Shown piece after piece: positions 1-25,101 of a stretch of 64,000 bases of DNA (the stretch's first letter is position 1; the number at the start of each line of letters is the position of its first letter). The DNA comes from Flaccisagitta enflata (lineage: Eukaryota): the NCBI GenBank assembly GCA_965153355.1, contig OZ231126.1, positions 43,462,001 to 43,526,000 of the forward strand. The letters are read 5' to 3'. The notes under the pieces are model-generated. The model had not been told where the DNA came from. It saw nothing but the letters and a program-made list of their open reading frames with translations, and did not search any database. Both the position numbers and the translations under genes were made by a program.

Positions 1-957
1 TTTTCTTTTTTGTCGGGTGTGTTTTTTTTTTTTTCTGTCTTAGTTCCTTCTAACCTCTACTATGTGCGACCATTCTATCACGCCGCGTTTTCAAACTACA
101 TCCTGAAAAAATAGAGGGGTGGTAAGAAGAGGGTTTTTTCACTATTTACCAGTTATTGCGATCCATTGGTAAGCGTGTTAAAGTATCTTGCGACTTGTGG
201 CTTAGTATCATATACCGGCTTTTTCTGGTGCGAATCTCGGTTTATTTGAAAATTTTTACAGCCTCCTTGATGGTTGAGCGATATATTCTCGGCTTTGGTT
301 CCTCCTTCCCTCTGACCGATCGTTTTAAGAAACACTACTTGATAGATACAAAATTGCTTTTTTAATTACTACCCCATCGTTTCATTAAGCATTTAATCAT
401 CATTTTATTACATTTTCAAGTTTTCAAACCATGTTTTCTCTTTTTCCTAACCAGATTTTTGATTGACTAAGTCAGCTCACATCGAGTGAATAGACTCCCA
501 TCGAAAAAGTGAACTCACATTGGTTAAAAAGTAGACTCCCATTGATTAAGTAGACTTATATAGTCTTTCACGGAATCTTTTTAAAGTGCGAGGAGGGATC
601 CTATCAAAGACGGGCTCCATCCAGTCGAGACAGAGGTCAAAATCCAGCGTGCCAACACCAAACAAGGAAATAAAAAAGTAAGTAAGGGAATTAGGAGTAA
701 GTTAGTAAATGTATTAGGCCTAGTATACTTACGGGCCTAAAACAAAGTGGGCGAAATGTCCCTTTGTCAAAGGTAGCTGAGTTGAAAACACTTTTGGGAA
801 TCTTGAATAAGCACGAAGGAGGGCCACTTCCTGATGGGATTTAAGGCCGCTCGCCATATGTAAGATGTGGCCACTCTCCTCCTAGAGATTGTAAAGAGAT
901 GATATTAAGCCTTTTTTTCCCCTTCCCTTCTCCAAACCCTCTATTGTTTTTTTTCAG

Positions 958-1074
958 ACTAGGATCGTTGGCGCTCATACTAAACCGCTCGCACTCATAC
1001 TAAACCGGACACTTCCAAACTCAAGAACGCACCTGAGAGAAAAATCGAAGAACTCACCTGGGAAAAAATCGAAG
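958..1074 (+). other. Putative upstream exon of the 1822-5198 gene
   Basis: Acceptor TTTTTTCAG ends at 957 and donor GTAAGG starts at 1075. The 117 nt are open and in phase 0 with the exon starting at 1816. Another donor GTAAGT lies at 678. Confidence 0.4.
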
Positions 1075-1147
1075 GTAAGGAGTATCACCACCAGAGTCTT
1101 CCCCTTTCACCTCCTTCTCTTCTTCTTCTTCTTCTTCTTCTTCTTCT

Positions 1148-1417
1148 TCACTCTTGAGATCCAAAGCAAGGCGTGTATACCAGCCTGCTTGGTCGTGATT
1201 TTTTTTCCTTTTTTCTCCTTTTTTTTTCCCGTGTGTAACCGAGATATTTTTTCAATTTTTTTCTTTCTCTTTTTGTTAAACCATATTTTTCCGTTTTTAG
1301 TTCCTCTAGTAATGCTTTTGCTTGTACATCTTCACACCATTTCACCACATTGACAGGTCCTCCTTCTTCCGGGACGGTGTCGTGAGTTATTAGAGGTCGA
1401 TCATCCTTTCTTTCCAT
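1148..1417 (-). CDS. Small basic hypothetical protein (89 aa, MERKDD...), antisense within a putative intron
   Basis: Non-repetitive ORF with an NLS-like Lys/Arg-rich C-terminus and a minus-strand TTGCAG acceptor just upstream. No homology recognised. Confidence 0.25.
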   Translation of the reverse strand: MERKDDRPLITHDTVPEEGGPVNVVKWCEDVQAKALLEELKTEKYGLTKRERKKLKKYLGYTREKKRRKKEKKSRPSRLVYTPCFGSQE

Positions 1418-1821
1418 CTTGACTTGGTTCTGCAATTGGAGGAGCCGAAATAAACAACAAAGGATACAAGGTAAGCATTCATTCGATTATTTTTTTTTTC
1501 ACCTGAGTCAAATGTCGCCGTCTTACAAAGTTTTGTAAGACGGCAAAACATATAGTTTGTGACTTTTAACACTCTCTATGACGTTTTCCACCGACTTACA
1601 ATCGTCTATAAAACAACCATCTGGAAACAACCGACTTACGACAATTTCTAAGACTGTGACTCAAGACCATCTAAAAACCACCGACTGAAAATCATTTGCA
1701 AGACAGTAACATGTCTTATAATCTAAACAATTGTTCGTTTTTCTCTCGTTTTCCCTTTTTTCACTTTCCACACTTATCCACTCTCCTTACCTTTCCTACT
1801 TTTCTTTTTCTATAGACTTAC

Positions 1822-2741
1822 ATGCCAATAGGGAATAAGGACAAAAGACCCCTCTATCATTCCCATATATATTTTTCGGCCTTTGCTGAAAGCCTAGTCA
1901 CAAATCGACATCTCCGTAAACTCTTATTAACTATTGACAAAATGGTGCTTAATTCCGAGGGTCCTCCCACTAACTCAAAATTTATTTTAGACCCGGAGGA
2001 GAATGTTTTATCACCGACAGCGACACTCGGCTTAGAATTGGTTAAGGATCGTATCAGAGATGAACAGAATGAGTTAACCATGGGTGGGAATAATTCTGTA
2101 AAGGGAGTTGTTCGAACGGGGAAGATAAGGGCAGCAGCTTGTAATGTTTCTGAACTGAAAGAAATAAGAAAAAAAATTGTGGATATTTTTAAGATCGCTC
2201 TTCCAAGCGAGGTTATTAATCAAAAGGTTCTTCATAACTTTAGCTTTACCACAGACACATCTATCTTAACGGCTCTGTCAGAAAAACACAATAATACCAA
2301 GGCAAACGCGGTTGGGTTTGGGACTGCACACCATCTCCAACATTTCTTACTGGCAAACAGTAGCAACCTAAAACAGGAACCCTGTCAACTACGACACACA
2401 CCAACCTTCTTCATCTCAATCCTACAATGCTGCAATTCAATTCTCGCCCCTTCCCCCCAACACTATCTAAGAAAGGAATGGAAAGAGTATCGTAATGCGA
2501 CCCCTCCTCCATTTCCCAAGTCACCTTCCAACCCACAACAGCATGCCATTAAGACGGAACGCTTACAAGGTCAGAGAGAACGGGTGCTAAAAAATTTAAC
2601 TCATTTGATGGAGAAGAAACCTCACACCATTTCACTAGAACAATACGCATCCTCCGATTGGAGAACATCACCTCTCACTACCACTTTTGATAAAAAAGAA
2701 GTAGCGAAGCTAGAGAAACTCGCATCCTCATTCAACACCCC

Positions 2742-2808
<67 letters not shown>

Positions 2809-4172
2809 GAAACATCAACAGCTTCAGATCCAACAGTCGGTTCCGGTGGTCACCCTGTGTACACCAACTGTTTCTACTGTCCGCCGTTTATCCATAAACC
2901 TAAAAACGAGTCAGCCGTCTCCGTAAACCATTTTTCGTGATCTGTTGCATCCCGCAGTTAACATCCATCGGCTGCTTGTCAAAACTTCGCTCCATCAAAC
3001 ATTGGAACATTTCGAAAAGTTCCACTCTGAACGTTCGAGTTCAAGAGTCAAAAGTGGGCATGGTTTGATTCTCCCATGTGCAATCTGTAGCAGATACGTC
3101 ATGGAAGGGAAGGAGGAGTACCGTTTTTCAATGTATGCGTGTTGCTTAGAGGACCTGAAGGACCACTGTCTCCTCATGCACCATGAAGACAACTTATTAT
3201 ACCATCTTTACGTCTCCATAAGAAGGATGATTGTACAGGAAAACATAATGATAGATTTAAAACTTGTGGATATGTACTTGTTAGTGAAGTGCCCAATGTG
3301 CAATATGAATTTCCTTTCACAAGCTGCAGTCAAAATCCACGAAAAGCTATGTTTAAGTAAATTTGTCACCTCCTGCGCCTTTTTTGGCAACCGTCTTGCC
3401 AACAACGTTTTCTCCTGCAAATACGTCAAAGAGAAATCTGAAGAGGAAGATCAACTGCACGCGATCAATCAAGCATCCCTCTTCCTAAAACGCGCATCCG
3501 CATCTTCGTCTTCCAAGGATTCAGCAACTACATCAGCAACAACTACTGCCACTTCAACAACTTCGACAGTAACATCAACAACGATCAAAACTAACAAAAC
3601 CTTTGAACAATACCTCTCAAAAACTTACGGAGAATTCTTGCTAAAGAAATCAAGCCCCTCAAAACACTCAAAACATAAGCACAAGGATGGGACATCAAAG
3701 CTGACCACGACCTTCGTGGAACAAGAATCAACCCCAAAAATGAAAAAACCTCCACCACACACAACCAGTCGGAAAAAAGACAATCCGGCAAAAGCGTTTT
3801 TAGACTCCGAAGCAATTGAGGTGAATCTCCACTCACCTGACAAGAAGATCCAACGAAAGAAAATGAAAAATAAATCCAAGAGCGAAGGGGTTGGCGGAAA
3901 AAACTGTGATGAAATGGAGAATCGCAAAAAAGAGAATAATGACGAAAAACGCCATCTAAAGAACAAGGAGAAACACAAAGGGGAGGAAGAGGAGAAAAAC
4001 CAAAAACGGAACGCGAATGGCGAGGAGGAGGACAAGGAAGAGGAGGAGGAGGCGTCGAGAAGAGGAGGAGAAAAGACACATAGGAAGAAAAGACCCCACA
4101 CTGAGAAACAAAAAGAGGAGAAAGCAAGGAATGATGGGAGAAACAAAAGCGGAAAAAGAAAGAGTCGGGATA

Positions 4173-4214
<42 letters not shown>

Positions 4215-4628
4215 TTGATGACGTCACAAGTAGAGGCAAGCCCAATGGCAATGGCAATGGTGACAACAGATGCATTGTGATTGAGGGTGATAGTGATGAC
4301 AACAACATTCATAGCAGTTACAAGCACAAAAATGACACTGATAACATGGATGTTGAGGAGGAACATACGGTTAATGATACTGATGATGATGGAAAACAGA
4401 ACTCTGCTGCGGATGATAATGATAGTGATGGCGATGATGACAATGAGGGTGCTGACAACAACACTGATGGAGATGACAATGATGATGGTGGGGGAGATAT
4501 TGACAACAATGATGACGATGACAGTGACGATGATGACGGTGACAGTGACGATGATGACGATGATGACGATGGTGATGATGCTGATGACGATGATGGTGAA
4601 AGTGATGACGACGATGATGATGATGATA

Positions 4629-4664
<36 letters not shown>

Positions 4665-5198
4665 CTGATGATGACAACGATGATGGCGATGCTGGAGATG
4701 AGGGTGATGATAATGATGATGATGATGATGATGATAAAGAAAACGATCCTAACCACCGCCAACGCTCTATTAAGAAGAAGAAACGCGTTCGCTACGCTTT
4801 GTCAACTAGTTCTGACAATAACAGCTCTAACAATTCATCCTCGGAGGAGGAGGAGGAGGAGGAGGAGGAGGGGAAAGGAGGAAGGGAAGGAGGATCTGTC
4901 ATCTTCATCCATGCTTGATACTATGTCAAGTAGCTACTCATCCATAGGTGTGTTAAAGTCTAAAAAAAAATTGAAAGGAAAACATACTGAGGAGCACAAA
5001 CCTGTAAAAAAAAGGAAGACCATCATACAGAGTAAAAACAAAAAAAAAGGTTCTCAGCTGAAGAAAAAAGCCAAAATCATTTCTTCTTCTTCTTCCTCCT
5101 ATTCTTCTTCTTCTTCTTCTTCTTCTCCCTCTTCTTCTTCTTCTTCTTCCTCTCCCCGCATCTCAGCTAAAAAACAGAAAAAGAACCACAGGCGATAA
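1822..5198 (+). pseudogene. Large ORF (about 1,120 aa reconstructed): unknown N-terminal domain, poly-Q tract, Cys/His zinc-finger-like cluster, Lys-rich and very long Asp-rich tail; split by two +1 frameshifts
   Basis: ORF 1822-2940 joins ORF 2945-4918 if one T is removed from the T run at 2931-2935 (NHFRDLLHPAVN). A second +1 shift near 4871-4876 joins the end of ORF 4281-5198. Motifs: CFYC..NHFRDLLH, CAIC, DHCLLMHH, CPMC..HEKLC. A splice acceptor TTTTTCTATAG ends at 1815, just before the ATG. Confidence 0.65.
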
Positions 5199-5316
5199 TG
5201 AAGGATAAAGGTTATAATTACAACTTCCTTTTCACTTTATTCCCCACCACCCTACTACACCTCTTACTGTAAAAAAAAAAGCTTTTTTTTTATCTCTTTT
5301 CTTCTATCTTTCCTCC

Positions 5317-5321
<5 letters not shown>

Positions 5322-5392
<71 letters not shown>
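5322..5392. repeat. (CA)n microsatellite
   Basis: Direct sequence. Confidence 0.95.
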
Positions 5393-5395
<3 letters not shown>

Positions 5396-5599
5396 TCAGA
5401 TTGTGACGAACTTCTTTCACCGTAAAGCAACATTGTTCCAACACATTATGGCAACTATGTTCATTGTAAAATTGTCTCGTTGATTCCAACTTTCCTTTTC
5501 TATATGTTGTATTTCTATTTGTCTATTATGATTTCTTTTTCTCCTGTTGCCCAATCAAAAAAAAACAGAATAGATAAAAATATTAAACCCCCAAAAGTG

Positions 5600-5676
5600 T
5601 GAGTTCCAACACTTCTCCTCTCCCCCCTCCCAACCTATGGGGTGGGGGGGAGGGGGAGGGGTGGGATTGGAACTCA
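5600..5676 (+). promoter_or_regulatory. Hairpin with G-quadruplex-type G tracts just upstream of the pPolB start codon
   Basis: TGAGTTCCAA (5600-5609) pairs with TTGGAACTCA (5667-5676). A C-rich arm faces GGGG-T-GGGGGGG-A-GGGGG-A-GGGG-T-GGG. The ATG is at 5700. Confidence 0.5.
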
Positions 5677-5699
5677 AAGAGAAACACTTAATCTTGAAT

Positions 5700-8600
5700 A
5701 TGTTCCACGAGGATGACTTGGACTACTTAGATGAAAATTCTTTGATAATCCATCAAACAATCACTGACGATTTCTACGCTGGTGAGCAAAAAATTTTTTG
5801 TATATTTTTTTTTTCTTTTTTGCATTTTTTGCATTTTTTCTCTTATAGAACTATGAAATATCATATTCTTTCTTCCCTCAATTCTTACATTTTCTTTTTT
5901 AATGCTGCTTCTATCAAAATACTTTGGATTTAAGGATTGTCTGCGAAAACAATATTCCAACGTGCCCCCCATGAAACTTGGAAATCCTATCTCCCGGAAA
6001 CTGAGATCTTTATATATCATAACTTCTACATGCGTCCCACACTATCACAAATTCTTCAACCCGGCAAAGAATACCTAATTTTCCTCTCGGCTGAAATAGA
6101 GTTTCATAAACTAACAGATATAAATGATAAAATGTCAATTTTTTCATCGTATCGGAATCAAAGATGGATATCAGTGGATCACAACTCTTTAGCTGTATCA
6201 AATAGATATGCTGACGAAATGCTGACAAACTTTAGCATCCAAATTATGTCTGACATTGATTCAGTTCAAAATAAAAAAGAATCGGGTTGGGTTTATGAAA
6301 AAGTCATCAAAATGTCAATAGTGAAAATTGAACGCAATATATTACTCGGACCGAGTTTTGGAGCCACACCACGCCGAAACAAAAAACCATACTCCTTTAA
6401 CAAACATTTTCAAACTACTTTGAAAACATCAAACTTGCGTATTCCTGATAACTACATCCCATACTCTTTCTCAAAGCATCCTAACATCTGCATCCCTCTC
6501 GCCATTGTCATTAAATTGGAACACATCAGGGCCGGTGGATCATTCAACATAAAGACATTTTCTCTCAAAAGAATAGCCTCTGCTCTCCATAATCTACGCT
6601 TTAAAGAACTTCAAACTGTTGAAAACGATTTTAAAATTTACAAAAAAGACCTCCCCAAACTAGAGGAAATAAATAAGGGTTTTGGGGAAGCACTCAAACA
6701 ACAATACCCTTTTCTTCGATTATATGACGGTTTCAGTCTTAATATGTATAGGGTTTTAGGCTTATATGAGACACATAAAGGCGGTACTGTTCGTTTAACT
6801 ACCTCACATCTTTTGGAAAATTGGAATTCGTCAAAATTCCTACAAATAGATTTACTCGACGCGACTGATATCCTAGACCCTCCAGTCACAGACCATGTTC
6901 TAATAATTCTAAACTATATCCAACTTGTCAGTCACAGAAAGGACACTCGCTACAAACATGCTTGTCGAGCATGCCAAAGACTTTTTTCGAAATATGACTC
7001 CTTTCTAAGACATATCACTGAAATTTGCTCCCCCTCTCCAACAGCCCCAAGACGTGCTAAAAACTTCATCCTTCATAAAACTTTCATCAAGGACAAACAA
7101 ACCGGGAAAAAAAAACCTCACACCGTTTCTTTTCAACATAGACAATATCACAAGACATTCCAGAGCCTGGTTTATGGAACCATGGATCTAGAAAGTACAA
7201 ACAAAACCATGGAGGCCGGCCTTTTTCATAAAAAACCCCCTTCATCCTCTATTTTCTATCAAAAACCATTTGCATTCAGCTTATGTTACACCACTCCTTA
7301 CAACATACAACTCCCAGACAATCTTAACAATATCACAATTAAGTTCTATGACGAGCGTCATACTACCCTAGACACCTTTTATTTGTCGATCCTTACAACA
7401 TTAAGACAAAATGCCGCAGATGTGAATAAATTCATATTCAACACAATTACTCAAGATAACGGACCACCCAACTTATCCTCTCTATCCAAGGCCGACAGAG
7501 AAGCCTACATGAAAGCGAGTTCGTGCAGTTTTTGTGGTAGAAAATTCAACTCCAAGATAAGATCAAAAAAGAATAAGAATTTATTTTTCACTCTCCGAAA
7601 GGTAAAACATCATAATCACTTTATCAAAGTTCCCAACCTCGCCAAAAAAGGAAGTATTAGTGAAGACAATGGGAAAGACAGACATGAAGTAATTGTCCTT
7701 TGCTCCGGTTGTAATGTGAACACATACCAAAGTGGTTTTCTCACTAAAAACGATCTACGAATTGGGATTCACAATGGCGGAAAGTACGATTTTATTTTCT
7801 TGTCGGACATGGTCTCTAGAGTGGGCCATACACCATTTAAACAAATTGATAAAAATGGTCAAGAGATCACCTTACCATTAATCAAAGGGGATGTTCAAGT
7901 ACTATGCAAAGATAAAAACAGTTTTTTGCAATTAAGCCTACGCTTCAACTGTGACCATTTATCCACTTGTCCCTACCATTCACAAAACAACCTTTCATCC
8001 ACCCACACAAAAAAAAACCGTTGGAGTTCCTGCCCTTACGAGAAGAGTGTTACCTTTTTTGACACAGCCATGATGATAACTGCCAGCCTGGATGGTATGT
8101 TACAAGATGTGAGAAATATACACGAGGGAGTCAAGGATTTACGTTTAGTCTTCCCTCGCACACACCATTTTATAACCTCTCAAATGGGATATAATGAGGA
8201 AGTTTTTTCATCCGTTCTTTGTAAAAAAATACCTCAACCTTTTGAAAAAATTGATTGTCTCCAATATGCTCTAGACATGAAAGAACCTCCACCGGTTTCT
8301 CATTTTTTTTCCCGTCTTAAAGGAGATGCGTTGACAGGGGAACCTAGCATCTCGGAGGAAAGTTACAATGATTTCGTTAGCATTTGGAGACAAATTGGCG
8401 CAACTAATTACTTTGACGTTCTCGTGCTTCATTCCGGAGCCGACTCCACCATTCTCGCCGACGTGATTTCATTTTACTACGGTGAAATCTTTAGAGTGAG
8501 CGGACTATCCGCAATCGAATTTGTTACGTGTGCGTCAATTTCTTACCAATCGGCGTTACTAAACAGTAAATCCCCATACAACGCAAACGAACCTTTACAG

Positions 8601-10736
8601 CTACATGTACCTAATCGTAAGATTCATGATATTTACGCTCTTGGGTTACGAGGAGGCTACGCATTTGTAAATGCCAATTATTGTGAGTTCCGACATCTTG
8701 AAGTCAATCGGACAAACTCTGTCCCTAGAAACATGATAAAACAACTGTCTTTTGAAGATATTAATGGTCTCTATGCTTCTTTACTCAAACAAAGAATTTC
8801 TATTGGTGATTATGTATTCTATTCCCGCCGTCACAACAAACAGCAGTTTGACTTTCTTAGCCGGCAGTTGCTCTCTATGAATATCGATTTTTTTTCCAAT
8901 GAAATGCACATGAAAAATCACTTATTTTTCTTTGTCGTGATCTTGACTTATGACGATGACGCTTTATTTGCATCCCAAAATTTTGACTTGAGCTTTTTCC
9001 CCTTTTACGATACAATATCTCTCGACATGTTATCCCCACACCAAAGCGCACGTGCTCAACGTCTCAAACGCGATCCCGGGAGAGAATCATGCCAACTTGT
9101 TAGTTACTTAAAAAGAGGTTTAAAGACGGCGGATTATGCAGAAAACTTGATTTATCAATTATCATTCCACAATTGCAGAATTTCTTGTGTGGTTAAGATT
9201 GTGCGCTCAACTGCTTTTCCAGTGTTTAACCCTTGGCTTTCTCGATTAGAGACAGAAAAAAGACGTAATATATCTCCCATTCTTAACAAGCTTTGGAAGC
9301 AGTTTGGCAATAATATCGCGGGATACACCCATCAACGACTCAATGAACGCGTCAGTGCCAAATTATGCCTATCCAAGGCTTCCTTTGTTAGACACACTAA
9401 TTCTGAACACTTTTTCGACTTTACATTTATCAACGAAAATGCTTGCTTACTAACTTTTGATCATAAATCTATTGTAAGTAGAAATCTTCCCGCTATATCA
9501 TCACGCACTTATAGTTCTGCGAAATTATTCATGTGGAGAATGTACCACACTTTAGCTGCAAGATTTTACTTTTTTGGAGGGTATGGCACTCGAATTCTGA
9601 TGAGTGATACTGATTCCTACGCTGTCTCGATGCTCACTAAAAAGTGTGATTACACTTTTTTTTTTTTATAAGAACCAAGTTTATAAGAACGTTAGGCTTC
9701 AAAACGTTAAAAATTTAAGAACATGCTAAGAACATTGGAAGGCTTCATTTTTTCCAAAATTTAAGAACATTAGGCTTAAGATCTTAAAAATTTAAGAACA
9801 TTTTTTTCCTGTGCTTTTCTTAATCAATTGTACCTTGTCAATGGATAGACTATGTATCTTTTATATTGAGCAAATCATGTCTCACTTTAAATAGCGTATA
9901 TTTTTCTACTTTCATTGATCTTAAAACACTTAAAACATTTAAATCTGCTAGTTTGTTGTTTCATTGATATTTTCCTTTATTTTCTCCTTTATGACAAACT
10001 TAAAACTAATTAAGAACGTTCTTAATTGAAGGTTAAAAATGCGTTTAAATTAAGAACAATTTAAGAACGTTCAAGCCTTGAAACTGCTCAAAATTTAAGA
10101 ACATTGAAGGCTTGCTCAAAAAATGACGTTCTTATAAAAAAAAAAAGTGTATATGCTTGCTGAGGCGGAAAAAGCAAAGCAAGCAGGTCTATCTCACCTC
10201 CCCTTCTCTTCGTACACCTCCTGATTTATAGCAAATGCATGCCTGAAAACAATGGCACCATTTTTAGACTTTTCATGTATCAATCCTGATTCTCACATTT
10301 ATCAAACTTTTTTTGCTGATAGTACACCCATGCAAAAGGCCTGTGCAACCTTAGCTGAAAACAGACGATCTCAATCCTTCTATATTAAATCTGAGATCAA
10401 CAACAAACAAATGGAAATGTTTTTAGCCGCCTCAGCTAAATGTACATGATAGTAAACAAAGACTTGTCACCCTCTTTGATTAAAGCAAAAGGTTTGAAAC
10501 GAGGGCTCATTTCTAAAGTGATTGACACTGCCCATTTTATAGATGTGGCAAAACACGAAAAACCTTCAAAAACAGTACAACAATATAACTTAAAACGCAT
10601 GAACGGCACCATTTTTCTACATTCTGTAAAACGTAGAGCCTTAACACTTTTCACCAGTAAACGTATCATGGATCCGACTTATTTCCAACCAGGATCCCAT
10701 TTTGGCTATCCTCTCCATTTTAAACCTTTCATGTAA
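5700..10736 (+). pseudogene. Protein-primed family B DNA polymerase (pPolB, Polinton/Maverick-adintovirus type), about 1,460 aa reconstructed. Exon 1 5700-5781, intron 5782-5934, exon 2 5935-10736, disrupted by a MITE, a TGA and a frameshift
   Basis: Motifs: ESGW (N-terminal region), OTU-like Cys (NICIPLA) and His (DHVLII), zinc finger CRAC..HITEIC, ExoI MDLES, EndoVII/HNH-like insert CSFC..HHNH..CSGCN, ExoII HNGGKYD, GLRGG, motif A EDINGLY, motif B KQFGNNIAG, motif C SDTDS, and C-terminal KSE..SAKMY..KAKGL..KR in ORFs 10252-10449 and 10440-10736. Confidence 0.9.
9653..10149. mobile_element. Tc1/mariner-type MITE inserted in the pPolB coding sequence
   Basis: TIR CACTTTTTTTTTTTTATAAGAAC / GTTCTTATAAAAAAAAAAAGTG, TA duplication at 9651-9652 and 10150-10151. 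A second copy lies at about 62813-63155. Confidence 0.9.
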
Positions 10737-13694: not shown

Positions 13695-14854
13695 GATGAG
13701 TGAAGATTTTAAAAATTGGATGTTTTGAGCGGTTTTGAACCTTTGCATAACCAAGTGACCAAACAATCGAGAGGGAAAGACTGAGCAAAGAAAGAGAGAG
13801 AAAGAAAGAAAGAAAGAAAGAACGAAAGAACGAAAGAACGAAAGAACGAAAGAACGAAAGAACGAAAAAAATGGCAAAAATGAAAGAGGGAAAGAAGCAA
13901 TGGAGAAAGACGGAACAAAATAAAGAAAAACAAAAAGAAACAGAAAGAAAGGAAGGGAGAAAAAAAGAAAGTGAGAGAAAAAGGAAAAAAGAGAAAAGTC
14001 ATCCAAGGATTGCACATGGTCAGCCGTAACCGATAACCTGCTTGGAGTGATCAGCTGAATAAGTAGAGTGAGAGCAGGGCAGCGGCCCCAAAGGGCCGAT
14101 GTCCTGTAGGACACAGGGGTGAATTACCTTACGTCCTGAGAAGGCAAATTTTAGGCTTTTGGGGCAATTTTCCATGATATTCAATGGGAATTACATATTC
14201 TCAGCAATTTCTTGTTATTTTTCCATGTTATTCAATGAGGAATTCTTTTCTTATTAATCTTTCATGAAATCCAATTGCAATTTTGCATTTTTTTCATTTT
14301 TTGTTAATTTTCCATGTTATTGGATGGGATATATGCATTTTTCTATTTTTTTGTAATCTTTCCATGTTATGCAATGGGAAGTTAGTATTTTGTCATTTTC
14401 CCATGTTATTTAATGGGAAGTTTGCATGTTGTTATTTTCCCATGTTATTTAATGGGAAGTTTGCATTTTGATATTTTCCTTTGTTATTCGATGGGAAATT
14501 GAGAATTAAGAAGTTTTGGGGGAGGGGGGACGTACGTACGGACAGACGGACAGACGGACGGAGGTAAGGAAATTCACCTCTGTGTCCTACAGAGAGGCCA
14601 GATTTGGAGTCAGAAAGGTCTGATTTGGGGTCTGAAAGGCCTGATTAGGGGTCTGAGAGGCCCTATTTGAGGCTTGGGGGAGGGGGGGACGTAAGGAAAA
14701 CGGAAACCAGAGAAAATTGCTCTATGTGGAATCATAGGTGATCGGCCCCTCCGGGGCCGCTGCTAAAAAAGGAACAGGTCGCCCAAAGGCAATATGTGGT
14801 CAGTGATACCCGTTGCCCTGCTTTGCATGGTTGTGAATCAGAGTGAGAGGAAGC

Positions 14855-15312
14855 AGGGCAGCGGCCCCAAAGGGGACAAAGTCCTGTAGAACGCAGGGGG
14901 ACTTTTGTTCACCCATCTATCCGTCCATCCATCCGTCAGCCCCCCCCAGGCCCTCTCAGGCCTGAAATCTACCCTCTCAGGCCTGAAATCTGCCCTCTCA
15001 GGCCTGAAATCTGCCCTCTCAGGCTTTGAATCTAAGGGGGCGTATGTAAGGCCTGAGAGGACAGGTTTCAGGCCTGAGAGGGCAGATTTCAGACCTGGGA
15101 GGGTAGATTTCAGGTCTAAGAGGGCAGATTCAAGGCCTGAAAGGGCAGATTTCAGGCCTGAGAGGGCAGATTTCAGGCTTGAGAGGGTAGATTTTAGGTC
15201 TGAAAGGGCCTGGGGGGGACTAACGGAAGAACAGACGGATGGACGGACGAACGAACAAAAGTCCCCCTGTGTTCTACAGGGCTTCGTCCCCTTCGGGGCC
15301 GCTGCCCAAAAA
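14855..15312. mobile_element. Non-autonomous element carrying a 21-bp tandem array (related copies at about 14077-14770, 42755-43346, 51338-51980, 54395-54996, 56350-56710)
   Basis: Inverted ends GGGCAGCGGCCCC / GGGGCCGCTGCCC, internal GGCCTGAGAGGGCAGATTTCA-type repeats and a (GACG/GTCC)n tract. Confidence 0.75.
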
Positions 15313-15504
15313 AGGAAAAAGAAGAAAAAAATGAAAGAAAGAAAGAAAAAGAAAATCAGAAAATCAGAAAAAAGAAAAAAAGAAAAACGGAAAAAGGAAT
15401 AAGGAGAGAGAAAAAAAGAATTGGATGTTCTGCGCGGTTTTCACCTTTGTATTACCAAGCAAGCAAACAACTGATCAACCTACTGATGAGCATGGACGCT
15501 CATG

Positions 15505-15589
<85 letters not shown>

Positions 15590-15713
15590 TATGGCGTACG
15601 CGCTTACTTGTTGGAAAGATGAACGCTTACGTTTACGCTTACAAGTCCACAGAAATTGTGGGAACAATAATGCTTACAAGTAAAGCCAAAAGTGGCGAGT
15701 ACAGCGAGTACGC

Positions 15714-16232
15714 TTGGGTGCTTCATATAGCAAAAGTTGGGAGTATCCCTCAACCTTACTTAAATAACGTGGAGGAGCAAAAATCATAAAAAATGACAAT
15801 TTTTCTTTTTTCAAAATTTCTCTATCTTCCGTTCTTGTTTTGGCATTAAAAGTTTCCACAGATTTCCCAGAATTCAGCAAAATCCTGTGTAGTTTTGTTA
15901 CAACAAGGACAATTATTTGTTGTTGGAAATCATGATGTTTGTAAAAAAAAAAACTAAAATATCAGAACATAAACTATAGAAGAGTTTATGAAAAGGCAGA
16001 ATTACAATTCTATAAATAGAAAAAATTTGTAAAAGCTAATTCAGACAATATCAGCATATTGTTTTATCCCACTGCAATATGCAAATTAAGTCCTCAAAAA
16101 CAATTTTTTTAGAAACGGAAGATGAACAATTCTTGATAAAAAAAAAATGGTAAGGATCCTAAAATTAGCCATTCCATATTAGAAAAAGAAGGTGAAACAA
16201 AATCACCTACTTTTGCTATGAGAAGCACCCAA
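15714..16232. mobile_element. MITE with a 9-bp TSD (Mutator-like)
   Basis: TIR TTGGGTGCTTCATATAGCAAAAGT / ACTTTTGCTATGAGAAGCACCCAA. Flanks CGAGTACGC and CGAGTAAGC match at 8 of 9 positions. Confidence 0.75.
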
Positions 16233-17239
16233 CGAGTAAGCGACCAGGTCCGCGTCCGCGTCCACGTACGATAACGCCATCACTGCATCGTCATCATGCA
16301 TCAACGTCATTGTCGGAATGTAAAAAAGTGGGATAACTTTGGAAGTACAAGAGTAAGGATCATGAAATTTTGCACTCTCGGACAAATGCTATTACTGTTG
16401 GGTTTATTTGAGGACTAGAGCTGTTTAAACAGGACCAATTGGCCCATTACCGGCCAAGATTGGCATGAGTAATTGAATACACGGCAATCCAGTAATTGAA
16501 TACACGGCAATCCAGTCGCGGACAGTTTGGCAGGAGTAGTAATGCAAAAACCACTCGGAATTCAAAAAGGTCAAGGAGGGAAGGACCGACCGACCAACAC
16601 CGCAAGGTGTAGAGTCGCGTGTCCATGACTCAAAACAATGATTTAATTATAAGATTAGGTTTGGCGTTTTTGTTTTTGTTTTTTTCATTTTTGGCATAAA
16701 AGTGCCCTCTGAGGTACTGAGAAAAGTCGGCTCACAGTGGTAACGACGAGCTGTTTTCTTTTTCTTTTTCAGTCCAGCATCTTCCGCTTTTTAGTCGCGA
16801 ACACGAAACTCTAACCAACTTCTCGGTCCATCGGTCCATGCGTCTGTCCATCCGTCACAGTTGTTATTCGACTTTTTCTGCTCCTGCCCACCCGTCCGCG
16901 ACTAATGCTGCCGTTTATACAGCCTTGTTTAGGTCGACTCCTAGGCTTACCCGTTTTTTTTTGGTCATGATGACCGTCATAATATGTAGAGCATTGAAAT
17001 GTACTTGAGGTGGAAGAAAAAAAAATTCGAAAAAAGAGTAAAATGGGGATCGACCGACCGACCAACCATCGGATAAAGCAAGGTGTAGAATCGCGTAGCA
17101 CGCACTTAAAACAAATTCGTGGAACAACTAAAACAAAAGGCCCTTTGAGCAAAATACGAAGCACGTATGCATCATGCCGCCCATAACTTCTGTTGATTTT
17201 CCTTATTTGCATAATTAAGTAAAATATGTTACTTGCCAG

Positions 17240-18234
17240 CGAACTTCGCTTCGTTAAGCGCCAGTTTTCCCAGAAATGATGTTGGGTGATTAATAGGAAA
17301 GGTCAAGATCAGTTTCAGATGGATTCGAAAGATGATAATTTTTCCAGTTGCTTGACCGCCTGTCTACGGATCTTACCATATGCAAAGTTGTATCAAAGCT
17401 TATTCACTCTTCCTTCGCCTGGCCGAGCACGTAAGACATTCTCCATCATCTCGCATTGTCATACAATTATCATGTGACGTCATGCATGTTCATGCATTGT
17501 CATGCTTTCAAACCTCACACCTTTCCCACTCTTGATTAGGATTTGATGTGGCGGGCTTTACTCAGCATAGAGATGTGAACGTCGATGACGATGACAATGA
17601 AGACATCGATAACGAATACAACCCTTGGAAAACATGGAAAGATGACGCCCTGCTTTATGATGAAATCTTCCCGGAAACCTCCACAGCAAAGCCTACTAAG
17701 TCGGAGAAAAACAAGGTATCTATTCTCCTACAAATCCAATGCGTATCTCTTATCTGAACTCTTCTTCTTCGCTCTATATAATAAGTCTTCTTCTATGTTT
17801 CCTTCTTACAGGGAGTGAATATCTTCCAACTCCACCTAGATGATTTCATTTGGCGTCATTTCGGGGAATGTGCAAAACAAGGCTCCAAATTTTGCAGTAT
17901 TCAACAAACCATCGACATCACTCAACTCGATGATACCATGAACGGGCAAGCGCTACAGAAGCAATTTGGTGGGCTTTCAGCGAAGGCGATGTTCAAAAAG
18001 CTTGACTGGCTGCTTCCAGCGAGAGCACCCCCGACTCCATCAACCAGCAAAAAACTGATCAAATCTAGCCGCACAAACGAGTTAGTGGAAAAATGGAAGA
18101 ACAAATCACTTCCAAAAAACCCTTTTCTTAAAAAAGGGCATCCTGAACAGACTGCACATGAAAAAAGAACCAATGATGATGAAAGTGACGACTTGTTTCT
18201 AGAGAAACCTATTGAGAAAAAGAAAAAGAATTAA
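17240..18234 (+). pseudogene. Three phase-consistent exons (17240-17430, 17540-17715, 17812-18234) of an unknown protein; possibly the 3' half of the 11284-13370 gene
   Basis: Donors GTAAGA (17431) and GTATCT (17716), acceptors TTAG (17539) and TTACAG (17811). Spliced: ..SLFTLPSPGRA-RFDVAGF..SEKNK-GVNIFQLHLDDFIWRHFGEC..KKKKN*. One in-frame TGA at 17277. Confidence 0.6.
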
Positions 18235-18541
18235 ATGTTTTTTTAACATCCAACACTGGTGATTGACATCTGCCGCGGGTCCTCAGCGAGTAATGACACA
18301 CACTCTCAACATTCATTTTTCGTTCTCCGCATGTACTCTTTAACTCTATGTAACCTCAAACCCGTTACTGTTGTTTTTTAAATATCTTCTTTGTCTTTCT
18401 TCACAACTTTTCTATCCTATTCTCTTCTTTTTAAATGTAATACTCAGATTGAGATATAATTTTCTACACCGCTTTTGGTTTATCGCGGCAACAACAACAA
18501 CAATAATAACAATAATAACAATAATAACAACAATAACAACA

Positions 18542-20054
18542 ATGGCGACTCCTCGCCCTCCTCGCGGCTCTTCCACCGCCGTCTTCCTCTTCTTCCTCAT
18601 CGTCTTCACCGGTGGCGACGTCGACGGGCGCCCTCACCCGCCAACCTCCAGAGAGAAGGCGGAGGAGGAGCAGTGGAGGTGGCTCCGCTTCTGCGTGAGC
18701 GAGGTGGCGGACGGATGCAGGCACGTTATTTTTCTTTCTCTTCTTACAAATATTTCATTTCATTATAGTTTTAATCGTGTATCACTTTCACTACATTTTC
18801 AGGTATAGGTGGAACTACCGTAAGTGTAAACCATTACTCTAACATCCTCCCCCCCATTTTACCACCCACAGATACGACGGCAGCAGAGAGGCGGCCTTTA
18901 CCGGCTGCATGCTGGAGGAGAATAATGGTACTTAATTTTTCTTCACTTTACAGGAGGAACTTCTTCTGATCATCCTTATTAGATAATGGGACACAGCAAT
19001 AGATGTTAACTTAAATATAACCCTTCAACAGTCACATAAATATTTACTAATCATCTTTTTTTACTTTTCCCCTAAAACCCCGTCTCTCTCTCTCTCTTTA
19101 TTTTTCCATACACACTCACACAAAAGAATGTATCGCACAGGCGCTCAGAAAATGGTGCACGGTTTTGGAGGGGGAAGCGAGGCCGGATCGTTGGGTGGCG
19201 TCGATGACGTCATTCAATGTCACACCACCCCACGATCCGGTCCTCCCACGACGACCGTTTCCAGTAAGTATACTTCATTCTATCCTCTCATTTGATTGTA
19301 TTGAAATACATTTTCGGAAACCGTGGGTCAATTTTCTAACATTTCTCCCCTTATTCTTCTCTATTTTCCCTCCCCAACTCAATGCAGCCATTCTTCAACC
19401 ACAAATCGTCATCGTCATCATCATCATTATCACCAACATCAACGCCGCCGACGCCGATGTTGGCGTCCCCAACGCCGCCGTCTCCTCCATCTCTTCTTCC
19501 TCATCCTCTTCCTCTTCCTCGTCCTCAACCACTTCCACCTCGTCGTCAAGAGGAGGAGAGGGAAGCGGAGAAGTTTTGGGTGTTAAGCCCTCCCAAACCT
19601 CTCTCCCCTCCTCCTCTATCACCATCATCGTCATCATTATCTTCCTCAACCTCAACCACCACCGCGACGCCTCCTCTCACAACCACAACAACAACAACAT
19701 CAACGACAACAACAACAACAACAAAATCAATAACAGCGGCAACAACAATAGCAACAACAACAACGGCGCAACAACAAGAACAACTACAACAAAAACAACA
19801 AAAACTAAGAAAGAAACAAAAGCAACAACAAAACCAAGAAGAAGAACAATTTCAACAATTACAACAACAACAACGTGAACAACAACAACAACAACAACGA
19901 CAAGAAAGACAACAACAACGTCAACAAAACCAAAAACAAAAAAAACAGCAACATGAACAACAACAACAACAAAATTTACAACAACGTCAACAACAACAAA
20001 GACAATACCAACAACAACAAAGACAACTACGGTACGACCAACGGAGACAAAGAG

Positions 20055-20110
<56 letters not shown>

Positions 20111-20144
20111 AAGCAACAACATCAACAACAGGAACAACAACAAG

Positions 20145-20187
<43 letters not shown>

Positions 20188-21112
20188 GGAACAACAACAG
20201 GAACAACAACATCAACAACAACAGCAACAACATCAACAACAACAACAGCAACAACAACAGGAACAGCAGCATCATCAACAGCAGCAACAACAAGAACAAC
20301 AACATCAACAGCAACAGCAACAACATCAACAACAACTTCAACAGCAACAACAACAACAACACGCTCCATCACCCTCGCCATCTTCCACCACCCCCACCAT
20401 CCTCACCATCTCGCTCTCATCCCCACCGGCGTCGGTGGTGAACATCGACGCCGCCACCGTCGTCGCCCAAATCCACGCGATGTCGTCGATTTTGGTAAGA
20501 TTCATTCCGAATTATCTTCACTTTGAGATTGGCATTAATTAACCTTTCATTCTCTCCTCTCGCTCTTTTCGTTCTGGTATTGATTATTCAGCTTCAAGAT
20601 GGCCATTTTAGTCAACCCTTTTTTTTTCTTGTTTTCGCTTTCACCCTTGTAAAAAGGATTAAACCCACTATACCCATTATCATTTCCCACCAACAGCCGA
20701 AATTACAAATCATCAAAGTGACGCCGGTGGAAAAAACGGACAATCATCAGACGGTCAACGAACAAACGGCCAGGCAACAATCATCAGATAAACAAACAGA
20801 TAAACTACGGTTAATCGAACAGCTAACGGATGGAACGAACGTCGACGACCAAACGGATAATCATCAACCAATCGATCGGATGGATGAACAGCAGTCATCG
20901 GATATACATCGGCCAATCAGCGAGCAAACGGCCAAAACGATCCACGACAGACGAGCGGATGTAACGAAGATCGACAGTCATACGCAGCGGCGTATTTGAA
21001 GGGGCTTCCGCAGCTGCCGCGGCAGCTGTTCTGTGTCGGACAGGATCGATGTCGGACAGACAGACAAAGAAAAAAAGAAGAAAGAGGAGGAGGAGAGGAG
21101 GACGAGGAGAAG

Positions 21113-21166
<54 letters not shown>

Positions 21167-22852
21167 TGGTATTTAGAAATCAAAACTTGTGTTGTTCGGT
21201 AGTATATAACAATGGGCCCCATAGGTCATGTGATTATTCATGCTATGCCATAGTCTGCGCTTTTCGCTCTGATGGAATCCCTCTGTATCATTTTACCATT
21301 GTTATTTCTTTTTATTTGGATTCCCGCTGAAAATATTTCTGCTAAAATGTCCAACGGAAAACGATTTCAGCTTACCCCCAAATGATGCTTTAAAAAAAAA
21401 TGCAGTCATTGCTCTAAGTGTGATGAGAATTCTATGAACTTATTTACACAAATAATGTACTAGGTAGTTTCACAATACACACTGCTGTAACAAGTTATGT
21501 ATGGTCATATTTAGTTATGTTTATATAGTAATAGATATTTATGTATGGTTTTGAATAGAAATATGTATATTTATATAATAATAATTTTTAGTACTATAGG
21601 TCGGACAGGAGCTTTGTCGGACATAGATTGAAGGCGGCAGCTGCTAAAATCTTGGCTCAGATACGCCGCTGGTCATACGGATACAACAGTCATCGAACAG
21701 CGATCGGACATATCAATCGGCGATGATCAAACGGTCGGAGAAATGGACATCGGACAAACGAATGGAACAAAACTCGACGGTCATTCAGTCAAAACAATCG
21801 ACGACGAACGAGCGGATGAAACGGACATCGAACGGCGATCGGATGGACACTCGAATGGAACGCACGTCGACGGTCATACGGACAAATCATCGGGCAGCGA
21901 TCAAACAAATGCAACGGACATTCACGGCCATACGGACAACGCGGACGGCGGATGGTACTTCGCTATGTAAGTTTTCTAAGTCTACGTTACACCGACAAGT
22001 GTGCAGGTCAGTCACTTGGGTTCAAACTAAATGTTAAACAATCCCTCTCCTATGTTTCTTTATTTCTTTGTCTCTTCTCCAACTCGAAATAATTAGCGAG
22101 GGTGGTTCTATCGTTGTCGGGATAGTGGTTGTGGTCGGCGTGGTGGTAGTTGTCACCCGACACTACACCCGCCGACAACAGGCTGCTGATGTTGCGGCAG
22201 AGGCTCGTCCTCATGACGAGGCTGTCGTCATGTCCGATCTGGTGAGATTACTATAACTTTAAACCTTCACTAGTTATGTGTAATTAGATATATAGTGAAG
22301 TTTACTTATACATTCTTAGTTTGCAGTCCTCTTGTCATTTACCAACTCTATTCCAATCTCTCTTATACTACTTTTAATAACAACTTTCAGCTTAGAAGAG
22401 TAGAAGAAGGGGACGCGGCAGAAAGAGAGGAGGTGGAAAGAGAGGAAGCGGAAAGAGAGGAAGCGGAAAGGGAGGAAGCGGAAAGGGAGGAAGCGGAAAG
22501 GGAAGAAGCGGCAAGGGAGGAAGCGGCAAGGGAGGAAGCGGCAAGGGAGGAAGCAGCAAGGGAGGAAGCGGCAAGGGAGGAAAGAGAGGAAGAGGATTGG
22601 GATTCGGAATTGGAGAGAGAAGCGATAGCGTTGGCGAGGTGGAGGAGGCCAGAAGGATTTGGGGAGCAGAGAAGACAGGAGGAAGAGCAAGTTGAAGCGG
22701 GTTGGTTTTGTTGTGGAAGACGGGTGGTTGGTATAAGAGGTAGAGGAGGTAGAGGTAGAGGTAGAGGTAGAGGGATTGGCGAGGAGGAAGGGTTAGAGGC
22801 GTTGCAACAGGCGAGACACGACATCCTCCTGACCACACGCACCTACATATAA
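18542..22852 (+). pseudogene. Spliced type I membrane glycoprotein, about 891 aa (exons 18542-18724, 18809-18819, 18872-18927, 19127-19263, 19388-20494, 20697-21966, 22097-22241, 22391-22852), with a MITE in exon 6
   Basis: Signal-peptide-like AVFLFFLIVF, Cys-containing N domain, S/T/P and poly-Q stalk, NGT/NAT sequons, TM segment IVVGIVVVVGVVVVV followed by RHYTRR, and a cytoplasmic (EREEA)n/RG tail. Junctions are phase-consistent; boundaries of exons 1-4 have an alternative in-frame solution. Confidence 0.7.
20985..21671. mobile_element. hAT-type MITE in the glycoprotein exon
   Basis: TIR CAGCGGCGTAT / ATACGCCGCTG. Perfect 8-bp TSD GTCATACG at 20977-20984 and 21672-21679. Confidence 0.9.
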
Positions 22853-23505
22853 AGACACTCACATTCTCTCAAACCCCATGCACACCACATAACATACAAG
22901 CACACACTGTTACCTTTACCAGCATGCATTAGTGCACATACTGCCATGTACATTCTGTATATACGAGGTAAACTTCTTGATACATTTTTTTATTCTTAGA
23001 CTTAATCTAGTATGTCGTTGGCGTAGATTTTTTAGATATAAGTTTAACTGGTGGGCTAACATGTATTTTGGATTATGGTAGCTATAATTTTTCAACATTA
23101 CTTATATATTCATTTATCATTTTAAAAAACTAATTTCCTCTTTTTTCTTATCTAATTTCATTTTCCCCCTTTTCAATCGCATAAATAATCACTACTATAA
23201 ACACTCGCACTAACATTATTAGCCACATCATGATCAATCGACCACCCGGAGACGGTCTGTGGCGGCCATTATCGCCACAGACAGCGAGGGGGACAGCAGC
23301 GGCAAAGAAGGGGACAACGAGGAAGAAGACAGGGCAAAGAGTGGGGTTTTTTTTTCAGATGAGGTTAAATTGAGTAAGGAAGAGGATGGGGGGGCAGTTG
23401 ATAGTATGGCGTCAGCGTTTGGGAAACTAAAGATGATTGACCCTAGACGTAAAACACAGTAAATTAATTAAGGGGAAATTGAATTAATTTTTTATGGGTC
23501 ATATT

Positions 23506-23986
23506 TTTAGTCGCGTGCACGCGACTCTACACTTTGCCGTGTTGGTCGGTAGGTCGGTCGGTAGGTCCGTCCTTCCGTCCGTCCGTCCGTCACATTTTTG
23601 AAATTATGAGTTTTTAAGGTTTTTTAAGGTATTTTAAGGTACTCTAGGGTATTTCAGGGTACTTTAGGGTCCGTCAGGGTACTTTAGGGTACTTAAGTTA
23701 TTTTAGGTACTTAAAGTATCTTAGGGTACTTTCAGATACTTTTGTTTTTATTTCAGGTATTTTTGAGTATTTTTGGGTATTATTAGGTGTTTTTGGGTAT
23801 TTTTGGGTGTTATTGGGTATTTTTGGGTATTTTTGGGTATTTTATCGACTTTTTATTGGACAGTCGTTATTGGTTCAGAATGTAACTTTTTTTGGGATAG
23901 ACGTTATGTAGTATGAAGTTCTGTCGTATGAAGTTGTGTAATTGTTTGTAACGTAGCACGCGACTGTTGGCCTGTTGGGCTTGTTT
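23506..23986 (+). mobile_element. HINE/Helentron-like non-autonomous repeat (one of about 20 or more related copies in the window)
   Basis: T-rich start, palindrome AGTCGCGTGCACGCGACT, (GGTC/GTCC)n microsatellite, internal 10-bp tandem array, and a CTTGTT end. Similar copies include 26323-26552, 36995-37290, 42130-42302, 44303-44498, 44615-44762, 49962-50112 and 63405-63620. Confidence 0.7.
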
Positions 23987-25101
23987 CTTATACATTGGGT
24001 TTTTTTTTATAATGGGTTGTTGCCGTTGGTCTGTCGTTTTTTTGTGTTTATTTTTTTCCTTTGTTTTATTTTTTGAAATAAAGTTAAATTGTTTGTCTTA
24101 ACTAATATAGTTATTTACTATTTATGAGCAGTTAGCAACCCATTGACGAGTGAGTATATATTTTCTATACATCTTTCGAATAAAAAAAAATCAATACTTC
24201 ACGAAAAAGATCAATACTTCACAAATACAGTCTTCATCAATCGACATAAAAAGTGGATATAATCATGATTTTGATTATGATTATGATTATAATTATGATT
24301 ACGATTTTGATTATAATTATAATTATGATTATGTTATGACATTCTTCAACAAACACAATCACAGGATTCCTACAGTTTGACATGAAATACCGTAATAGTT
24401 AGCCATCTTAAAATTGCTCTTATCAGGTCAGCGTGTTGAAAGTGAAATGTGGACACTATTATGTCTGTGAATTTCAGACCTCTGTTACATAGTATGCACG
24501 TTTCGCCTTTGATACACTGATCTTACTTTTACAACTCGGGGAAAAACAATTATCTCCTCTCAACAAACCATCTCAACAAACCATCTCAACAAACCTTTAT
24601 CTACCATCTCTACCATCTCTACCATCTCTAGGATCAGCGCTTTTTACACAGGCATTTTTTAAGGGTACACCTTATTTCGTTTACATAAAATCCTGTGAAA
24701 AAAGCGGTCAATTTAACGAGATTCATCCAACCAAAAAATAGAGAAAAAAAAGAGAACAAAAAATCTCCATCTCCTTCTTTTCACATTCTTCCCATATACT
24801 CACTCGTCAATATCTAATACTTGCTCTTAAAAATATAAAATTAGGCTTTTTCAAATCCATTTTTAGAAAAAAAAATTAACTATAATATTCCCCCTTTATC
24901 CCTCTACTCAAAGCGGGGTGTAGAGTCGCGTAGCACGCGACTAAAAACTCAACCATTGTAAGTTTTTGTAAGAATTTTGCCTAAATTTTGAAAGTTTTTG
25001 CCTTAAATGACGACGTTTCGCGGGGAAGAAAATTAAAGGTAGGAGGGGGGGGGGGAATCAAAAACTACTCAATCTTACACACCCCTGATTATTAAGCTAA
25101 A

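Follow-up and report, generated by a model that had tools for sequence, protein, structure and literature searches.

Why does a DNA polymerase gene of the Polinton/adintovirus type lie in the chromosome of an animal, and is it part of a larger element? The gene (pPolB, for protein-primed family B polymerase) is found in a stretch of 64,000 nucleotides of Flaccisagitta enflata DNA (contig OZ231126.1, positions 43,462,001 to 43,526,000), which is animal DNA with abundant simple repeats and is called the window below. The initial annotation had described four genes lying head-to-tail on the + strand in its left part, and this arrangement was confirmed: a zinc-finger/acidic gene (ZnF, 1822-5198), pPolB (5700-10736), a downstream gene X (10834-18234) and a candidate signal-peptide/transmembrane (TM) gene starting at 18542. 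The gaps measure about 500 nt between ZnF and pPolB, 98 nt between pPolB and X and about 310 nt between X and the candidate glycoprotein gene. With about even confidence, we read the region from about 1822 to 18234 (possibly to about 23460) as the dead integrated copy of an unusual spliced pPolB gene block of Polinton/adintovirus ancestry. A selfish multi-gene element is favoured because ZnF and X are linked to pPolB across lineages, the genes are tightly spaced, three of them have decayed together beside intact host genes, whole and broken copies occur in two lineages, and the family is large. The feature coordinates are collected in Table 1.

The polymerase assignment made from the letters alone was upheld: 5700-10736 (+) is a protein-primed family B polymerase of the Polinton/adintovirus type. 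Its main part is a stop-to-stop open reading frame (ORF) of 1245 codons at 5934-9671. In alignments A1 and A2 the exonuclease motifs ExoI-III, the polymerase motifs A-C and a KxY motif (VKMY) follow in order and are invariant or nearly so in 13 to 20 relatives, and the catalytic residues are kept down to 27-39% identity. PF03175 reached its Pfam gathering cut-off (25.8 bits) in 4 of the 15 scanned relatives (P0011, 26.0; P0047, 25.9; P0113, 29.7; P0119, 27.6), and P0105 scored 24.6, just under it. In the ESM Atlas, PF03175 and PF02945 occur together in 24 of the 30 nearest clusters (top score 0.96); Arthropoda is the commonest recorded phylum in two of the top three. Searching the predicted viral structures of BFVD gave eight matches at E<=0.001, all of them polymerases or polymerase fragments of adintoviruses, MELD-viruses or bidna-like 'densoviruses', and the best (7.6e-11) is a Drosophila-associated adintovirus polymerase. 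The TM-scores of these matches are low because most of the pPolB model is poor. A PDB sequence search with pPolB, as a single sequence or as a profile, returned nothing.

The AlphaFold2 (AF2) model of pPolB residues 1-1199 has a mean predicted local distance difference test score (pLDDT) of 48 and is good for residues 1-365. Residues 1-135 form a terminal-protein (TP)-like domain. Comparison of this domain with the little finger/polymerase-associated domain (LF/PAD) of Pol eta, iota, kappa, Rev1 and Dpo4 by VIA-align gave Z 6.6-8.3 with 95-109 residues aligned at a root-mean-square deviation of 3.0-3.6, a Z near 8 being at the edge of the range of chance arrangements. At E<=0.001 Foldseek returned nothing from PDB; its top rows are the same Y-family proteins at E about 1e-2. 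The second domain resembles OTU cysteine proteases; conservation in A2 reaches at least 90% at C185 (in NxC) and H320, the putative catalytic residues. An HNH/endonuclease-VII-like zinc insert is located between ExoI and ExoII. PF02945 was detected in it below the cut-off of 23.6 bits in P0112 (E 0.044, 14.1 bits) and P0113 (E 0.0062, 16.9 bits), and 14-38% of the members of the Atlas clusters carry this family; the AF2 model is poor over the insert. The same kind of fold match, a TP domain resembling the little finger and followed by a viral OTU, is described for Polinton pPolBs in the relevant passages of PMC11161782. Endonuclease inserts in Polinton pPolBs have been published as well, among them an HNH domain in nematode and oomycete pPolB2, as stated in part of the text of 10.1101/2023.08.22.554363.

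Intact and nearly identical copies of the polymerase gene exist in marine samples. A protein search found 11 relatives among 2872 candidates, ranging from 99% (P0001, 1433 aa) to 39% identity (P0011). The 90% cluster of the window lineage has 52 members; 13 of the 15 listed are full-length relatives (1402-1433 aa) with 98-99% identity, and the remaining two are short and come from short contigs. Among the listed members a few haplogroups can be told apart, separated by 12-22 residues. The window protein differs from them at 15-24 of 1238 residues, 11 of which are private to the window. A profile search of 1.84 billion representatives gave 1444 matches at E<=0.001, 397 at 1e-10 and 111 at 1e-30, mostly fragments. 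One relative (P0012), a 649-aa piece of animal-type pPolB, is filed at NCBI under a Tenacibaculum metagenome-assembled genome (MAG) and probably comes from a misbinned eukaryotic contig. Sampled words of 1800-11000 also turned up in marine metagenomes from several studies and, with a share of 0.45, in a single metatranscriptome run, which is a hint only. No locus was found in the JGI metagenome contigs with alignment A1 or in the prokaryote genome set with A2 or P0012.

The window copy is disabled. By tblastn, residues 1-1239 of P0001 match 5937-9653 with 98.3% identity, residues 1230-1335 match 10123-10440 (frame 1) and residues 1336-1433 match 10440-10733 (frame 3). The polymerase gene is thus interrupted by a 497-bp insertion resembling a miniature inverted-repeat transposable element (MITE), by an in-frame TGA and by a one-base frame change directly before the KxY motif. 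ZnF and X carry frameshifts, stops or inserted repeats of their own, as had been claimed, so that at least seven disabling lesions are spread over the three adjoining genes, and the TMIE and PP1 exons nearby read open. Those frameshifts that fall within homopolymer or simple-sequence-repeat runs could be assembly errors. The 9653-10149 insertion was considered as a pPolB intron and rejected; it is a dispersed MITE-like repeat and not an intron, because a second copy with 90-91% identity lies at 62815-63151 (-). The two copies represent a repeat about 0.5 kb long whose terminal inverted repeats are T-rich and which shows a TA duplication. It probably represents a Tc1/mariner-type family that is active in this host.

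Is the block spliced? The initial annotation had ascribed GT-AG introns to all four genes. This held in part: a 5' intron in pPolB and introns in X are indicated by homology, ZnF has no intron, and two of the supposed introns that were probably meant are transposon insertions. The predicted 153-nt intron at 5782-5934 is well supported, because the exon-1 peptide matches the N-termini of four distant relatives. Exon 1 (27 codons from the ATG at 5700) ends at a GTGAGC donor, the TTTAAG acceptor at 5929-5934 joins it in frame, and the peptide that results ('..LDENSLIIHQTITDDFYA|G') aligns with the N-termini of P0123, P0132, P0181 and P0185, which are uninterrupted. The long ORF opens directly after the TAA and has the conserved 'GLSAK' from its second codon; the gene calls of the intact relatives begin at TTG or Met32. 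In five other lineages the ORF stops right after motif B with a read-through of the 'G K|V..' type, as an intron there would give. Further introns were found in two JGI contigs. In L003 (6382 bp), the pPolB of which is 27% identical to P0001, four canonical GT-AG introns interrupt the polymerase gene, one downstream of ExoIII, one within motif A, one ahead of DTDS and one behind motif C, and L004 adds a fifth, giving at least five in a distant relative. Introns in this relative are 75-130 nt long and T-rich. The intron positions of both pPolB and X differ between lineages.

Gene X has a counterpart in a distant relative. In L003 the pPolB stop at 4502 is followed after about 105 nt (4503-4607) by a six-exon gene starting at 4608; its introns are all GT-AG, and the joined exons stay open for 1305 nt. 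Comparison of 10737-24100 with L003 by tblastx gave collinear matches at 11482-11634, 12414-12569 and 17914-18021 (sum E 3e-17). When the exons were aligned one by one and compared with 500 shuffles, the scores of e2a, e2b, e3 and e6 were exceeded in 0 of 500; the weaker exons e1a, e1b and e5 gave 35, 9 and 23 of 500. The stretch between e1a and e1b, which bears (CA)33/(AT)n, could be inserted DNA or an unusual intron. Exons e3 and e5 are about 5 kb apart, the DNA between them is rich in repeats, and the palindromic or dispersed repeats in this gap (14856-15307, 14592-14770 and 13942-14140) recur at 43163-43346, 54393-54590 and 56567-56769. X had no Pfam match with the exons of the window and L003, exon 6 had no match in PDB, and no convincing relative of exon 6 was found in the ESM Atlas (best score 0.83).

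The ZnF gene is found upstream of pPolB. The ORFs 1816-2940 and 2927-4918 are parts of this single gene, the relatives of which are 617-1122 aa long. The relatives align in turn to frame +1 (1822-2916), frame +2 (2909-4870) and frame +3 (4881-5195), and therefore two frameshifts are placed near 2909-2933 and 4870-4881; a T5 run is the site of one, a poly-Glu repeat that of the other. The conserved part of the protein is its N-terminal half (about 560 aa), in which three CxxC motifs are spaced at about 71 residues. Next come an S/T-rich linker and a K/E-rich stretch, and the protein closes with a long D/N/E-rich tail and a basic end. Searches recovered a small family, 3 proteins and then 10, and fragments of the window lineage are 94.5-96.6% identical. 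ZnF shows no Pfam family and no LxCxE motif, and its fold model (mean pLDDT 38) was too poor for a structure search. In a sister lineage with a 70%-identical pPolB the ZnF relatives and the pPolB relatives are on contigs of the same four sizes (9074, 9084, 8862 and 9594 bp), which are therefore read as the same contigs, so that the gene pair would be kept in a second lineage. This lineage also has whole and broken copies (1365 aa on the 9074-bp contig, 721+542 aa on the 9594-bp contig). At positions 1-246 of L004 the K/E-rich end of an upstream + strand ORF resembles the basic tail of ZnF and is too simple to align. A perfect 28-nt hairpin (1517-1544) and three direct repeats containing CCGACT(T/G)A (1590-1690) are found in the 400 nt that separate the ZnF start from a minus-strand ORF (ATG near 1417); these sequences may be a shared promoter or related to an element end.

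The proposal of one endogenised, decaying element can now be divided. ZnF and X travel with pPolB in other lineages (ZnF in the 70% lineage by equal contig sizes, X after pPolB in L003 at 27% polymerase identity). The glycoprotein gene is tied to the block by position only, about 310 nt after X on the same strand, and L003 ends 77 nt after X. The region 18542-23462 plausibly encodes a membrane protein, judged from a signal-peptide-like start and a TM segment followed by a basic stop-transfer. The middle part is mucin-like, T/S/Q-rich, largely encoded by (ACA)n and contains many simple repeats, and no Pfam family reached threshold. As the tie is positional only, the 'possibly enveloped' lineage of the initial annotation is not supported.

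Table 1. Positions of the pPolB gene block, its predicted domains and lesions, and nearby host exons in the 64-kb window.
Feature	Position	Strand	Remarks
Minus-strand ORF	1148-1486	-	head-to-head with ZnF; sole match sub-threshold, low-complexity, E 0.043
ZnF/acidic gene	1822-5198	+	one ORF, about 1100 aa; tblastn of P0051/P0052/P0053; alignment A3
pPolB exon 1	5700-5781	+	ATG at 5700; 27 codons + 1 nt
pPolB 5' intron (predicted)	5782-5934	+	153 nt, GTGAGC...TTTAAG, phase 1; contains in-frame TAA preceding the long ORF
pPolB main exon	5935-10736	+	tblastn of P0001; interrupted by insertion, stop and frame change
TP-like domain, residues 1-135	5937-6341	+	AF2 pLDDT about 65-88; little finger/PAD fold of Y-family polymerases
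OTU-like cysteine protease domain, residues about 145-330	6369-6926	+	VIA-align Z 4.0-5.1 to many OTU deubiquitinases
ExoI D417xE419	7185-7193	+	alignments A1/A2
HNH/endonuclease-VII-like zinc insert	7524-7715	+	between ExoI and ExoII; CxxC...HHNH...N...CxxCN, invariant in 20 sequences (A2)
ExoII NGxKYD (613-618)	7773-7790	+	alignments A1/A2
ExoIII YxxxD836	8430-8444	+	alignments A1/A2
Motif A DxNxLYxS (941-948)	8757-8780	+	alignments A1/A2
Motif B KxxxNNxxG (1121-1129)	9297-9323	+	alignments A1/A2
Motif C SDTDS (1223-1227)	9603-9617	+	alignments A1/A2
MITE-like insertion in pPolB	9653-10149	.	497 bp; terminal inverted repeats (CACTTTTTTTTTTTTATAAGAAC...); TA at 9651-9652 and 10150-10151
In-frame TGA in pPolB	10222-10224	+	comparison with P0001
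One-base frame change in pPolB	about 10438-10441	+	directly before KxY motif
Gene X exon e1a	10834-10926	+	L003 homology
In-frame TGA in e1a	10888-10890	+	
Gene X exon e1b	about 11285-11374	+	L003 homology
Gene X exon e2a	11524-11631	+	L003 homology
Palindromic repeat in X exon 2	11632-12139	.	about 508 bp; flanked by 9-bp duplication (GTGCGTCAA)
Gene X exon e2b	12140-12229	+	L003 homology
Gene X exon e3	12342-12566	+	L003 homology
Gene X exon e5	17542-17717	+	L003 homology
Gene X exon e6	17812-18231 plus stop	+	L003 homology; gene ends 18234
Candidate type I membrane protein gene	18542-23462	+	signal-peptide-like start 18542; TM + basic stop-transfer in ORF 22038-22256
TMIE exon	25128-25355	-	PF16038 36.6 bits (cut-off 27); right of block
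PP1 catalytic-subunit exons	34153-36868	-	Metallophos E 4e-24; right of block

Three other explanations and the points that weigh against a dead element copy have to be considered together. It is unlikely, in our judgement, that an ancient Polinton-type polymerase and its neighbours have become ordinary nuclear genes of a marine animal group, the window then holding a null allele or a dead duplicate. Such a domesticated cluster would fit the lineage-specific spliceosomal introns in pPolB and X, the intact state of 13 of 15 listed close relatives, the catalytic residues kept at low identity and the negative searches for terminal inverted repeats, integrase and capsid; the 0.45 share of sampled words in the RNA run points the same way as a hint. 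The contigs of the close relatives (4.76-5.35 kb) match the spacing of the (CA)n runs at 5321-5393 and 10927-10992, and therefore their ends are assembly breaks and not element ends; all of them could come from one locus. For the same reason a maximum contig size of 9.0-9.7 kb was dropped as an estimate of the element size. There is also a precedent in Entamoeba, where transposon-derived pPolB genes are kept by the cell according to the part of PMC3511435 that treats them. Against domestication, the window copy has at least seven independent lesions in three adjoining genes and is only about 1.5% diverged from intact copies; this looks like neutral decay of a separate copy, and whole and broken versions are present in the sister lineage too. 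The family is very large and diverse in metagenomes, and the single member with a source name among 135 listed cluster members is the partial protein from the seemingly misbinned bacterial MAG. The order pPolB-X with a spacing of about 100 nt is kept at 27% polymerase identity, as is seen more often in elements than in host microsynteny. The GC content at third codon positions of pPolB (0.37, compared with 0.50-0.64 in host exons) is weak evidence in the same direction.

The block could also be the right-hand part of a larger, canonical Polinton/adintovirus provirus with integrase and virion genes left of base 1 or deleted, a reading to which we again give a low probability. The best fold matches are adintovirus and MELD-virus polymerases, and adintoviruses carry CxxC-bearing accessory genes upstream of PolB as well as membrane-active proteins (reported in sections of PMC8502044). 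The window holds only 5.7 kb upstream of pPolB, and one relative lineage (P0106) is found on contigs of up to 13.7 kb. On the other hand, the sister-lineage contigs that apparently carry ZnF and pPolB are 8.9-9.6 kb long, which leaves about 1 kb or less for other content, and in L004 the 830 nt ahead of pPolB contain no gene that could be recognised. The minus-strand ORF head-to-head with ZnF gave only its sub-threshold match, and a PDB sequence search with 1148-1420 returned nothing. IMG/VR yielded no relative with A1, X exon 6, P0106 or P0112 as queries. A solo polymerase fossil amid unrelated host genes is very improbable. The glycoprotein gene has no link beyond position and the DNA between the X exons consists of ordinary host-type repeats with copies elsewhere in the window, which speaks for such a fossil; it is contradicted for ZnF and X, both of which recur beside pPolB relatives elsewhere.

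Several results count against the dead element copy itself. The window polymerase and P0001-P0003 have no Pfam match, the polymerase half of the AF2 model is poor (pLDDT <50), and hhalign to the phi29 and PRD1 polymerases gave only motif-sized matches, which fall at the expected places (phi29 motif A and PRD1 ExoII, at probabilities of 5% and 22%). Equal contig sizes are the sole indication that ZnF and pPolB are together on one contig, and no ZnF relative is present in L003 or L004. The lineage-specific intron positions and the mostly intact copies also fit a host gene. As in the initial annotation, none of the standard genes was recognised: Pfam found no integrase (rve or other), capsid, packaging ATPase or protease family in the 26 ORFs of 1-24100, with the limits that divergent capsids often escape Pfam and that only 5.7 kb are visible upstream of pPolB. 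The best inverted matches of 1-1900 with 10700-13500, 18200-18560 or 23200-25200 were 14-16 nt, and the search for a target duplication of the block was negative; terminal repeats could be concealed by decay or by a left end that lies outside the window. The content of the block supports neither mobility nor a virion.

If the dead element copy is the right reading, the following model can be put forward for the intact form. The genes would be transcribed and spliced in the nucleus. For DNA synthesis on a linear element copy, the polymerase precursor would use its own N-terminal TP domain as the primer, and the OTU domain would cut the TP off the polymerase. The DNA cut that end processing or insertion requires may come from the HNH-like insert, which is proposed for this role because no integrase is seen. 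ZnF, with three CxxC motifs, an acidic tail and a basic end, might act as a nuclear accessory protein that binds DNA or chromatin. It occupies the position where adintoviruses carry CxxC-bearing 'Oncoid' genes, and the analogy is positional only because ZnF has no LxCxE motif.

More tentatively, and with clearly less than even confidence, we suggest a lineage, so far undescribed, of nuclear pPolB elements that carry introns, have their genes in the order (ZnF)-pPolB-X and may include a membrane protein. It would have lost, or never had, an integrase/virion module and would persist intact in marine eukaryotes, perhaps spread by the HNH-like nuclease. By definition, a Polinton-type polymerase comes with an integrase, joined in animals by a capsid module. 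Filters for integrase-linked copies have even been applied in large surveys, as parts of 10.1101/2023.08.22.554363 state. In the literature covered, which did not include supplementary files that may list such cases, we found no animal pPolB block described as having introns and lacking an integrase. If true, this would be a new kind of self-synthesising element, or the first protein-primed replication module kept by animals; a domesticated cluster would instead be one of the rare cases in which an animal has retained such a polymerase. Should the partner genes, the introns and the lack of integrase and capsid hold, the pPolB family (1444 representative clusters) would widen the known modes by which protein-primed replicons persist in eukaryotes. 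The intact natural genes would offer a test set for the function of TP-OTU-HNH polymerases in an animal nucleus.

Some features of the window lie outside the block. A 10-nt unit (TTTTAGGGTA-like) is repeated in about 23 copies at 23612-23844, between the glycoprotein gene and TMIE. NDUFV2 exons are also found right of the block; the exon at 57504-57830 contains a perfect tandem duplication of about 53 codons, which may be an assembly artefact, and a short N run follows about 500 nt downstream (about 58350-58361). Two long ORFs on the minus strand, 39592-41709 (705 aa) and 45608-46915 (435 aa), are partly low-complexity with no Pfam family and may be host genes.

Among known systems, the Bidnaviridae or 'bidnaparvoviruses' are arthropod-associated viruses with a Polinton-derived pPolB. 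They resemble the block in having TP-OTU-pPolB in a small genome context, and five of the eight significant BFVD matches are 'densovirus/parvoviridae sp.' polymerases. Unlike them, the window copy is nuclear, integrated and intron-bearing, with no parvovirus-like capsid or NS1 helicase seen; the OTU of bidnavirids is reported to be inactivated (PMC11161782, in the passage on this domain), whereas here the Cys and His are nearly invariant. Transpovirons and cytoplasmic or mitochondrial linear plasmids are likewise gene-poor, encode a pPolB to which the TP is fused and lack a virion module. They differ in being extrachromosomal, intron-less and bounded by inverted repeats, and they reside in giant-virus factories, fungal cytoplasm or mitochondria, whereas the window copy is nuclear and chromosomal, in an animal, with no such repeats found. 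EhDNApolB2 of Entamoeba histolytica, as described in part of PMC3511435, is also a pPolB with a long N-terminal part of unassigned role, and it stands in a eukaryotic genome with no integrase beside it. This is a likeness by description only; the host is a protist, and that part of the account mentions no conserved partner genes. Adintoviruses and Polintons (Mavericks, class Polintoviricetes) differ in their rve integrase, double jelly-roll capsid, penton, packaging ATPase and Ulp1/adenain protease, none of which was recognised in the 24 kb, and in their inverted terminal repeats, which were not found; the block in turn has spliceosomal introns (at least five in the pPolB of one relative) and the partner genes ZnF/acidic and X without known family. 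With these elements it shares a pPolB that combines N-terminal TP-like and OTU-like domains with Exo and Pol motifs, integration in an animal genome and its best fold matches, the PolB proteins of adintoviruses and MELD-viruses; the putative HNH-like insert also has a parallel in the endonuclease inserts known from their pPolBs.

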